The notes under the pieces: model-generated
What the model was told of the DNA's origin: nothing
Seen by the model: the letters and a program-made list of their open reading frames with translations, nothing else
Databases searched by the model: none
In this document: piece after piece, positions 55,308 through 57,898 of the stretch
Numbering within the stretch: the stretch's first letter is position 1
Layout of the letters: every line of letters starts with the position of its first letter
Made by a program: the position numbers and the translations under genes
Source of the DNA: Alphaproteobacteria bacterium
Lineage (GTDB): Bacteria; Pseudomonadota; Alphaproteobacteria; Bin95
Direction: 5' to 3'
DNA length: 64,000 nucleotides
Assembly (NCBI GenBank): GCA_964291285.2
Contig: OZ219785.1
Span: 192,001 to 256,000, forward strand

Positions 55308-56267
55308 CCCTCGGCATAGGCCTCATGATGTTCCCGGCCCTGATGGTGGCCATCTTCATGGGTTTCCCCGTGGCGTGGTCGCTGATGGGAATCGCCCTCA
55401 TCTTCGGCTACTACCGCTTCGGCGACGCGCTCGTCTATCAGCTCGTGGCGAAGGTGGACGACGTCGCCTCCTACTATGTGCTGGCCGCCGTGCCGCTGTT
55501 CGTCTTCATGGGCGTGATGCTGGAGCGCTCCGGCATCGCCGAGCGCCTGTTCGAGGCCATTCACCTTTGGACCCGCCGGCTGCCGGGCGGTCTGGCGGTC
55601 GGCACCGTGCTGCTGTGCGTGGTTTTCGCTGCGGCGAGCGGCGTTGTGGGGGCGACCGAGTCGGTGGTCGGTCTGCTCGCCATTCCGATCATGCTGCGCT
55701 ACGCGTACGACAAGGGCCTCATCTCCGGCACCATCTGCGCGGGCGGTTCGCTCGGCACCATCATCCCGCCGTCGGTGGTGGTGGTCATCCTCGGTCCGGT
55801 GGCCGACGTCTCGGTGGGCGACCTGTTCGTCGGCATGCTGTTCCCGGGCCTGCTGCTCGCGCTGTCCTACGTGCTCTACATCCTGGTGCGATGCATGCTG
55901 AAGCCCGGGGACGGACCGCGCCTGCCGCCGAGTGACGACGATCCGCCCATGGCCCAGCGTATCTACATCACCGCGACGGCCATGATGCCGCCGCTGGTGC
56001 TCATCTTCGCCGTGCTCGGCACGATCATGCTCGGCTGGGCAACGCCTACCGAGGCGGCGGCGATGGGCGCCATCGGCACCGTCATCCTGACCGTCGTGTA
56101 CGGCCGGTTCGACGTCGCCACCCTGCACGCGGCGTTCATGAAGACGCTCCAGGTGACGGCCATGATCCTGACGATTCTGCTCGGCGGGACCATGTTCGCC
56201 GGCGTGTTCGTCGCGCTCGGCGGGATCAGCGCCGTGGAAGGGTTGCTGGCAGCGGCGAACCTTGTAT

Positions 56268-56436
56268 CTCTCCGGATCGTTGTTGCAGCTATAGTCGCAA
56301 CAGCGGGAGCGGACGGGAGACCGCTAGCACCCAGGTTATGAAGACCGCGGGAGAGCATGGTTCCCCGTCCGCTGTTCCTTTGAACCCGAACAGTCGCTTG
56401 GTCCGCAGTGTGAGACCGCATTTGCAAGGACGGGAC
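56268..56436 (+). ncRNA. Predicted bridge RNA (ends approximate)
   Basis: 5' hairpin, target loop closed by GCGGACGGG/CCCGTCCGC, and donor loop. ACAGTCGCT (56390-56398) equals the left donor; GGGAGAG (56349-56355) is complementary to the right target CTCTCCC. Confidence 0.8.
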
Positions 56437-57369
56437 ATGGAACGGATATTCGTTGGCATCGACGTGGCGAAGGATCGTCTGGACGTGCATCTGCGCCCGT
56501 CCGGGGAGGCCTTTGCCGTCGCGCGCGACGGCAAAGGCCTGGAAGAGTTGTCGGCGCGCCTGGGCGGGCTGGAGGTTGCCCTCGTGGTGCTGGAGGCGAC
56601 GGGCGGCTTCGAGGTCACGGTCGCGGCGGCGCTCTGCGCGGCGGGCCTGCCATTGGCGGTGGTCAACCCGCGCCAGATCCGGGACTTCGCCCGCGCCACC
56701 GGCCGGCTCGCCAAGACCGACGCCCTCGATGCGGCGGCGATCGCACAGTTCGCCGAGGCGGTCCATCCCGAGCCCCGTCCGGTGCCTGACGAGCAGGCCC
56801 GCGCGCTCGCCGAGCTGGTCGCCCGGCGGCGCCAGATCGTCGCGATGATGACCGCGGAGAGAAACCGCAGGAGGCGCCTCACAAGCCGTCGCACGATCCG
56901 CAGCGTCGACCGCGTGCTCGCCACCCTGCAACGCGAACTCTCCGACCTCGAAACCGAGCTCGGCGATGCGATCCGCAAATCCCCCGCATGGCGCCAGGCC
57001 GAGGACCTCCTCAAAAGCGTTCCCGGGGTCGGTGACGCCACCGCACGAACCCTGATCGCCGATCTCCCCGAACTCGGAACCCTCAGCCGAAGGCGCATCG
57101 CCGCGCTCGTCGGCGTCGCGCCCTTCAACCGCGACAGCGGAACCATGCGCGGAAAGAGAACCATATGGGGAGGACGCGCCAACGTCCGCGCAACCCTCTA
57201 CATGGCTGCCCTCACCGCCTCCAGGCATAACCCAACCCTCAAACGCTTCTATCGCCACCTGATCGCGGAGGGAAAAACCAAAAAGGCTGCCCTCACCGCC
57301 GTCACACGAAAGCTCCTCACAATCCTCAACGCTATCCTCAGAGACCGAACCCCGTGGAAAACAGCTTGA
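56437..57369 (+). CDS. IS110 DEDD recombinase
   Basis: GIDVAK, LEATG, KTDALDA, C-terminal RDSG; ATG after AAGGA. Confidence 0.95.
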
Positions 57370-57898
57370 CCGACAACACAGTCGCTCTCCCCGACCGCGA
57401 CCATCTTCATCCTGCTGTTCATCGCCTTCATCGCCGGCTTCGTGCTCGATCTGATTTCCATCGTGCTGATCATCATCCCGGTAGCGGTCGCGGTGCTGCG
57501 CAAGATGGGCGTCGACGACGTCTGGTTCTGCATCATGTTCCTGATCGTCATCCAGACCAGCTACCTGACGCCGCCGATGGCGCCTGCCATCTTCTATCTG
57601 CGCGGCATCAGCCCGCCGGAGATCAAGCTGGCGGACATGTACCGCGGCGTGATCCCGTTCATCCTTCTGGAGCTGGTGGTGCTGGCGCTGGTGTACTGGT
57701 TCCCGGGGCTGGCGCTGTGGCTCCCGAGCGTGGTGTTCAAGACATTCTAGAGCGGTCTCCGACCGGTATGAAACGCGTTCCACACCAACGTCCCGCTTTG
57801 GAAGTTTCCATGCAGCGGGTCGCGCCGGCTCTCCCGGAGGCAGTTTGGTTCGAGGCCTCCAGGGCGCGCCGCGCCCCCGCCACAGAGTTGCGTTCCCG

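Follow-up and report, generated by a model that had tools for sequence, protein, structure and literature searches.

A probable bridge-RNA-guided IS110-group insertion sequence of an ISMno7-like clade in the dctM gene of an alphaproteobacterium

The insertion sequence (IS) IS621 of Escherichia coli, which belongs to the IS110 group, targets repetitive extragenic palindromic (REP) elements. In one account of IS621 (PMC11208160), the bridge RNA of IS110 elements is described as a 5' stem-loop and, after it, a pair of stem-loops with internal loops, and in another (PMC11208158) residues D11, E60, D102, D105 and S241 of its transposase are given as a composite and essential active site. In the part of the literature drawn on here, ISPpu9 and ISPpu10 of Pseudomonas putida are multi-copy IS110 elements inserted in copies of a conserved intergenic repeat. 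We analyzed a 64-kb window of an alphaproteobacterial genome (the whole stretch of 64,000 nucleotides, positions 192,001-256,000 of contig OZ219785.1; coordinates below are those of the window unless a contig is named), in which the gene dctM is interrupted at 56261-57386. The interrupting sequence is very probably an autonomous IS110-group IS of an ISMno7-like clade that works like IS621 via a bridge RNA. As such it is a new member of the known IS110 bridge systems and not a new kind, its clade might already figure in the orthologue tables of the IS621 papers, and the known bridge-RNA mechanism is unchanged by the findings below. The closest named IS in a plasmid collection was ISMno7 of Methylobacterium nodulans ORS 2060, whose transposase is 62.6% identical over residues 4-308, well below the level used for calling two elements the same IS; the left-end architecture of the window element is found in Methylobacterium orthologues (61-66% identical), while the guide loops of ISMno7 differ.

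The element, its ends and its site are laid out as follows.

55211-56260, plus strand: 5' part of dctM (Pfam DctM, E 7e-49, profile 3-303 of 413)
56254-56260, plus strand: left target (LT) GGCGAAC, the last 7 nt of the dctM 5' part
56261-57386, plus strand: the IS element, 1124 bp plus CT on each side, delimited by junctions genome-wide and by empty-site contigs
56261-56262, plus strand: left CT core dinucleotide, read as CT TGTAT at 12 of 12 left junctions, with two ambiguous letters at the joint
56263-56270, plus strand: left terminus, with the right donor (RD) TGTAT (56263-67) and a -10-like TATCTC (56265-70)
56437-57369, plus strand: gene of a 310-aa IS110-family recombinase, an intact open reading frame (ORF) whose start is conserved in orthologues
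57378-57386, plus strand: right terminus, left donor (LD) ACAGTCG (57378-84) and right CT core (57385-86), seen at 13 of 13 right junctions
57387-57391, plus strand: right target (RT) CTCCC, the first 5 nt of the dctM 3' part
57387-57750, plus strand: 3' part of dctM (Pfam DctM, E 1.3e-17, profile 312-413 of 413)

A search with the 1126 bases 56261-57386 against the element's own genome (6.1 Mb, 5 contigs) found 13 copies. Nine were full-length and 100% identical over all 1126 bases; the other four had their first 46-72 bases absent in place, and three separate left fragments were found besides. The flanks of the copies were all different and had only a short target motif in common. The left junctions read N-CT-TGTAT (12/12; copy L011 was without a left end) and the right junctions ACAGTCG-CT-CTCC (13/13). 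In the window the inserted block begins with TGTATCTCTCC and ends with ACAGTCG-CT, after which dctM resumes with CTCCCCGACC. Terminal inverted repeats were not evident: when the last 13 nt were reverse-complemented, 4 of 13 places agreed with the first 13 nt. For comparison between elements, a genome-collection scan provided 80 orthologous loci with proteins 61-93% identical to that of the window, these being the top 80 of the 378 relatives found among 588 matched stretches; the genomes of these 80 were mostly alphaproteobacterial. With the window this made 81 loci, 69 of which had a recognisable left end and enough flank. The right boundary lay 17 nt past the stop codon in 61 of these 69, as in the window, where a non-coding right end of just 17 nt contrasts with a left end of 176 nt. 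Upstream regions of the orthologues aligned from CTTGTAT (core plus left terminus) to the start codon, CTTGTAT being invariant or nearly so across 48 left ends.

Contigs of four public runs were aligned to window positions 55700-57900. In three of the runs (X1, X2 and X4) contigs joined 56260 directly to 57385, skipping exactly 1124 bases and leaving two ambiguous letters, so an empty dctM site exists. The flanks in run X1 differed at 14 places and hence come from a related strain in which dctM is intact. In run X2 the joining contig had no flank differences and a depth of 15.1, that of the adjacent flank contig being 166.8; this hints that filled and empty forms coexist there, contig depth not being equal to a share of cells. 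Empty and filled dctM forms were both found in runs bearing the same organism label. The donor junction ACAGTCG-CT-TGTAT, the target GGCGAAC-CT-CTCCC and the clean insertion into dctM had all been proposed in an initial annotation made from the letters of this DNA; given the CT junctions genome-wide and the empty-site contigs, both reconstructed sites are correct and the insertion is clean. The element is apparently active; its transcription, RNA-protein binding, catalysis and circle formation are inferred. Another copy, identical and oriented alike, lies on contig C1 (C1:260075-261200), 4 kb past the window end and 10.7 kb downstream of the dctM copy, and the two could bracket an interval for bridge-mediated excision.

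The predicted protein has the features of an IS110-group recombinase: an N-terminal RuvC-like DEDD domain with four acidic residues (PF01548 DEDD_Tnp_IS110, E 3.4e-24) and a C-terminal Tnp domain with a catalytic Ser followed by Gly (PF02371 Transposase_20, E 4.2e-20). Against solved structures the best match was the IS621 transposase (8wt6_A, E 1.5e-38, residues 4-307), followed by the ISCro4 transposase (9t56_A, E 2e-38, residues 3-307), which matched the window protein as well as IS621 did and whose chain is 341 aa long. In the printed alignment D9, E53, D95, D98 and S234-G235 stand opposite D11, E60, D102, D105 and S241-G242 of IS621; domain order and the DEDD and Ser-Gly catalytic residues are alike in the two proteins, distant as they are in sequence (E 1.5e-38). 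The ORF reads through intact from 56437 to 57369, as had been claimed; the description of the protein as compact holds in that 310 aa is shorter than the 326 aa of IS621, a small difference. We rejected a 343-aa protein starting at an upstream ATG (56338), because this ATG lies inside a target-binding-loop hairpin and is not conserved in orthologues. Judging from its spacing, AAGGA (56426-30), 6 nt before the ATG at 56437, may be the Shine-Dalgarno sequence.

The left end would encode the bridge RNA, which we read as follows.

56278-56305, plus strand: 5' stem-loop, from the minimum-free-energy fold; a hairpin of at least 7 bp, differing in sequence, in 47 of 48 orthologues
56308-56373, plus strand: target-binding loop (TBL), with outer stem 56308-22/56359-73, 5' loop 56323-33, inner hairpin 56334-46 and 3' loop 56347-58
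56324-56332, plus strand: left target guide (LTG) CTAGCAC+CC, placed by register with orthologues; only GCAC-C (56327-31) matches targets
56348-56357, plus strand: right target guide (RTG) CGGGAGAG, effective part GGGAGAG (56349-55), then handshake CA (56356-57)
56384-56435, plus strand: donor-binding loop (DBL), with outer stem 56384-87/56432-35 and inner hairpin 56399-56418
56390-56398, plus strand: left donor guide (LDG) ACAGTCGCT, on the 5' side of the DBL, a 9/9 match to the right end plus core
56423-56430, plus strand: right donor guide (RDG) TGCAAG (56423-28) with handshake GA (56429-30), on the 3' side of the DBL

The fold was derived from 48 non-redundant left ends by an RNAalifold consensus followed by pair counting. 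The consensus consists of two stem-loops with internal loops; together with the 5' stem-loop as well as the long non-coding left end (176 nt), this is the layout of the IS110 group, and the order 5' stem-loop, TBL, DBL in a left-end guide RNA is that of IS621. In the consensus 97.1% of 1296 cells were paired, vs 86.1 ± 0.6% in shuffles (0 of 500 reached the observed value) and 33-48% when partners were slid. Changes on both sides of a pair were seen at 14 of 27 pairs overall and at 12 of 14 in the first outer stem, and such compensatory changes over 48 left ends support the fold; in the DBL, pair 151/182 is GC in 31 sequences and UA/AU in 17. The window RNA alone gave a folding z of -3.14. The inner hairpin GGTY..GACC-GC that the initial annotation had noticed in both loops was found at 56334-48 and 56400-19.

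Donor guides were legible on both sides of the DBL. The LDG equals the last nine bases of the element, and this 9-mer occurs twice in the 64-kb window (in the LDG and at the right end) vs 0.30 times expected, 4 of 100 shuffles reaching two occurrences. Moreover, the LDG covaries with the right end in orthologues, where the variants ACGGTCG and ACAGCCG are mirrored in the loop. The RDG forms six pairs with CTTGTA including one G:T. Among orthologues its CAAG is invariant and [G/A]CAAG is present in 48/48; the A found in three orthologues turns the G:T into a Watson-Crick pair. On the target side, the RTG part GGGAGAG (7/7) is the reverse complement of CTCTCCC, i.e., core plus RT. All 13 right flanks fit it: CT CTCC is present in 13/13, position +5 is C (nine sites) or T (four sites), both of which pair with G, and +6 is G in 10/13. 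The left flanks of 12 sites have C at -1 (12/12), A at -2 (11/12), C at -3 (11/12) and G at -4 (8/12). The LDG, RDG and RTG matches had each been named in the initial annotation and were all found in place.

Guides and sites were then compared across the orthologues. Among the 61 loci with the right boundary 17 nt past the stop codon, 59 could be parsed (L058 and L108 failed), leaving 37 guide classes with 55 distinct guide/site pairs among them; one site was taken per class. RT concordance was 4.92 of 6 vs 2.68 ± 0.17 in permuted pairings (maximum 3.22 in 2000), and LT concordance 4.62 of 7 vs 3.41 ± 0.15 (maximum 4.11 in 2000). Position by position, agreement at LT -4 to -1 was 0.73-0.92 for true vs 0.43-0.83 for permuted pairs, fell to 0.49 vs 0.37-0.39 at -5 and -6 and was at baseline further out; at RT +1 to +5 it was 0.86-1.0 vs 0.33-0.78, and at +6 it was 0.19 vs 0.17. 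Thus the clade reads about 4 LT + 2 core + 5 RT bases, a rightward shift relative to IS621, for which 7 + 2 + 2 is given in PMC11208160, an account in which longer RTGs are already noted for some orthologues. One comparison was particularly clean: the window element and a 93% identical relative (L031) differ by one RTG base (A to G) and their targets by the matching base (CTCTCC vs CTCCCC). In orthologue L074 the LTG matches its site 9/9. Furthermore, the handshake nucleotides agree with a rule by which they pair with position 7 of the non-cognate DNA and not with that of the cognate one. After the AG with which the RTG binds the core stands C 56356, which can pair with donor position 7 (G) in 42/42 distinct configurations, and G 56429, which follows the RDG, pairs with target position 7 in 41/42, vs 1/42 and 0/42 for pairing with the cognate DNA. 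The CT core within the guides, the LDG of 7+2 nt, the short imperfect RDG and the handshake at position 7 are all as in IS621.

The insertion sites resemble those of IS621 in a preference for repeated intergenic sequence. In a pattern search of the own genome, an intergenic repeat of the form GCGCGCCTGATTGCGCGCGCG...GCAC-NN-CTCCCGTCGG...TTTT turned up in 55 copies, three of them occupied by the IS; a profile built from the 52 unoccupied copies had 95 matches in the genome. The repeat is about 100 nt long, starts with a GCGCGC-CTGATT-GCGCGC hairpin and ends in a T-run (e.g., L111 at C3:68624, L112 at C3:2018634 and L113 at C1:10218); Rfam gave nothing relevant on five unoccupied repeat/target loci, so the repeat is without an Rfam family. 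The profile matched 5 of the 12 rebuilt IS sites (E 9e-16 to 6e-27), the other seven, including dctM, lying outside the repeat, and it did not match the right-only flank of the 13th copy. ISPpu9 and ISPpu10, as described, are alike in occupying copies of a conserved intergenic repeat and unlike in host class and in the repeat itself, and the window IS has 7 of 12 sites outside its repeat. Of 50 unoccupied copies that could be parsed, 22 had a GT core with a perfect RT and only three read CT CTCCTG. Since the occupied left junctions were CT in 12/12 despite these 22 free GT-core copies, the element selects from the repeat the minority of copies that have a CT core. We rejected GCGGAC, left of the target, as a sequence read by the RNA (GCGGACG also stands in the TBL stem), its conservation being due to the repeat family.

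Joining the two ends of the element creates a further candidate feature, a promoter.

57365-57371, plus strand: -35-like CTTGACC, overlapping the stop codon TGA (57367-69), with a putative promoter function

As had been foreseen, circularization brings TTGACC (57366-71) to 17 nt (15 from the right end and two from the left end) from TATCTC (56265-70), and both letters and spacing were confirmed on the joining ends. Among orthologue configurations, 40/42 have CTTGAC at an unchanged distance from the core and the other two have CTTGAT; a -35 in the right end is also found in IS621, unlike which the window element has a 17-nt right end with its candidate -35 over the stop codon. TTGACC-17-TATCTC may act as a promoter in the junction.

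Several lines of evidence (domains, catalytic residues, RNA fold, guide matches and the CT-flanked insertion) support the IS621-type bridge mechanism that the initial annotation had proposed, and the following cycle can be envisaged. Excision would yield a circle, and the donor site would form where its right end (ACAGTCG-CT) meets the left end (TGTAT). The circle junction, setting CTTGAC(C) 17 nt from TATCTC, would probably drive transcription of the left end into an RNA of about 160-175 nt with 5' stem-loop, TBL and DBL. Dimers of the 310-aa DEDD/Ser recombinase would sit on each loop, with the donor junction held by the LDG ACAGUCGCU and the RDG UGCAAG, and a target of the form GCAC-CT-CTCCY held by the LTG (effective GCAC-C) and the RTG (GGGAGAG). 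Strand exchange at the CT core would then insert the element without true duplication. The preferred target is the CT-core variant of the intergenic repeat, dctM being a one-mismatch site, GAAC-CT-CTCCC.

On the other hand, a number of observations weigh against this bridge-RNA reading, in whole or in part: i) The LTG is weak, its places -5 to -7 matching in only 1 of 36 cells over 12 sites; ii) Its second core nucleotide (C56332) is C and not U, a C that several orthologues share in their LTG or LDG, and in this the window LTG is unlike that of IS621; iii) The dctM site reads GAAC against the guide GCAC, with a mismatch at -3, so that three of the four proximal LTG places match; the claim that the guides can be read against the element's own insertion therefore stands cleanly for LDG, RDG and RTG and not for the LTG, which the initial annotation had left unnamed; iv) The orthologues are akin, so that the permutation tests overstate independence; v) The handshake nucleotides are nearly invariant, which makes their pairing a matter of consistency with the rule and not of covariation; vi) Rfam 15, searched over 56000-57700 at E up to 10, returned eight matches, none at its gathering score and none to a bridge-RNA family; vii) The -10 candidate TATCTC agrees with TATAAT at three of six places under E. 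coli rules and is without the final T, so that it would fail the criteria of a promoter scan, and a promoter scan of the integrated copy gave no promoter-like site. Rhizobial sigma-70 promoters, of the form CTTGAC-N17-CTATAT, would fit better.

The first two of these points would also suit an IS110-family IS that leaves its LTG unused, target choice resting with the core and the 5-nt RTG and left-flank conservation coming from the repeat family, which holds 5 of the 12 sites and itself conserves the flank. However, CAC at -3 to -1 is kept in 11-12 of the 12 sites including the seven outside the repeat, LT -4 to -1 agree with the loop well above permuted pairs over 37 guide classes, and the LTG of L074 matches throughout; we therefore regard an idle LTG as improbable. 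Even less probable is that the left-end structure is merely a 5' untranslated region (UTR) that controls translation of the transposase, with the ends recognized by protein alone and the guide matches coincidental. The RDG and handshake stretch does overlap AAGGA, which resembles a Shine-Dalgarno sequence, and a single nucleotide separates the DBL stem from the ATG at 56437, as such a UTR would have it, but across orthologues the loops change with the flanks while the stems stay paired, the LDG follows the variants of the right end, and the homologous IS621 is presented as RNA-guided in PMC11208160 and PMC11208158. The least credible alternative is that duplication, and not transposition, multiplied the copies and that they are inert relics. 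Four of 13 copies broken by other ISs and the missing left end of L011 would suit it, but nine are identical throughout between unrelated flanks sharing only the short target motif, the ORF is intact, and empty and filled dctM forms occur in runs of the same organism label.

Within the preferred reading, i.e., an IS621-like element guided by a bridge RNA, the clade may split the work unlike IS621, although we hold this only tentatively and think it rather unlikely as a whole. The LTG would be 4 nt long and tolerate C at the second core place, the RTG would be 5 nt long, the RDG and handshake stretch would double as Shine-Dalgarno sequence (DBL folding or recombinase binding throttling translation), and the right end of 17 nt would carry the -35 over the stop codon. 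If this division of work is true, the element would, at 1124 bp, be among the smallest self-contained bridge systems.

Its 13 copies, the verified empty site and a target defined as 11 bp make the element a well-documented natural example of the bridge-recombinase family. The genome also supplies a natural control, in that GT-core repeat copies with a perfect right target stay unoccupied (22 copies) and every occupied junction is CT. Those who screen orthologues for genome editing may find the short protein and the very short right end of interest. For the host, the consequence is that dctM, the permease gene of a tripartite ATP-independent periplasmic (TRAP) transporter, is knocked out by the insertion. 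Directly upstream of dctM, at window 53542-55307, lie ORFs of 371 aa and 178 aa, by position those expected for the TRAP components DctP (periplasmic) and DctQ (small membrane).

Several minor observations concern relatives of the element and of its RNA. The best sub-threshold Rfam match to the left end was sX15 on the minus strand (window 56295-56409, 28.1 bits, E 0.032; gathering score 55). In the account of PMC3300014, sX15 of Xanthomonas, a plasmid RNA of 159 nt, lies on the 5' side of XCVd0107, and a Stenotrophomonas genome has 10 homologues. sX15 may itself be IS-borne. A lone TBL-like stem-loop was found in the own genome at C1:7920-7992 on the minus strand (L030, about 1501-1573). It shares 81% identity with IS positions 46-117 but has differing loops; it is intergenic, with no recombinase gene or donor loop adjoining, and from its sequence appears to be the remnant of a related IS. 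We rejected it as a stand-alone guide, because relatives hold its 3' flank only (G006 matches 97% over query 86-121) and no matching target stood out. At the protein level, tblastn of the own genome found, besides the 13 copies, only two fragments 29.6% identical to recombinase residues 185-307, and there is thus no second close family in this genome. The two fragments (C4:271224-271598 and C5:3461-3835) are identical to each other; by their sequence they represent a distant IS110-family gene present twice. Several stretches of C2, C3 and C5 are duplicated, which suggests that contig C5 repeats parts of other contigs.

Finally, the four copies broken by other insertion sequences (C3:1141028-1143613, C2:1145191-1148469, C3:1703378-1708049 and C2:1294678-1295741; L010-L016 and L116-L118) all have the interruption within IS positions 47-77, a 31-nt part of the region that encodes the TBL. 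The interrupting inserts are of three sorts: an IS256-type element (Transposase_mut) with a 9-bp duplication, a DDE_Tnp_1-type element with a 6-bp duplication, which two copies carry at one and the same position, and a block of 3.5 kb that contains Transposase_29 and IS1595-type genes and has a 5-bp duplication.

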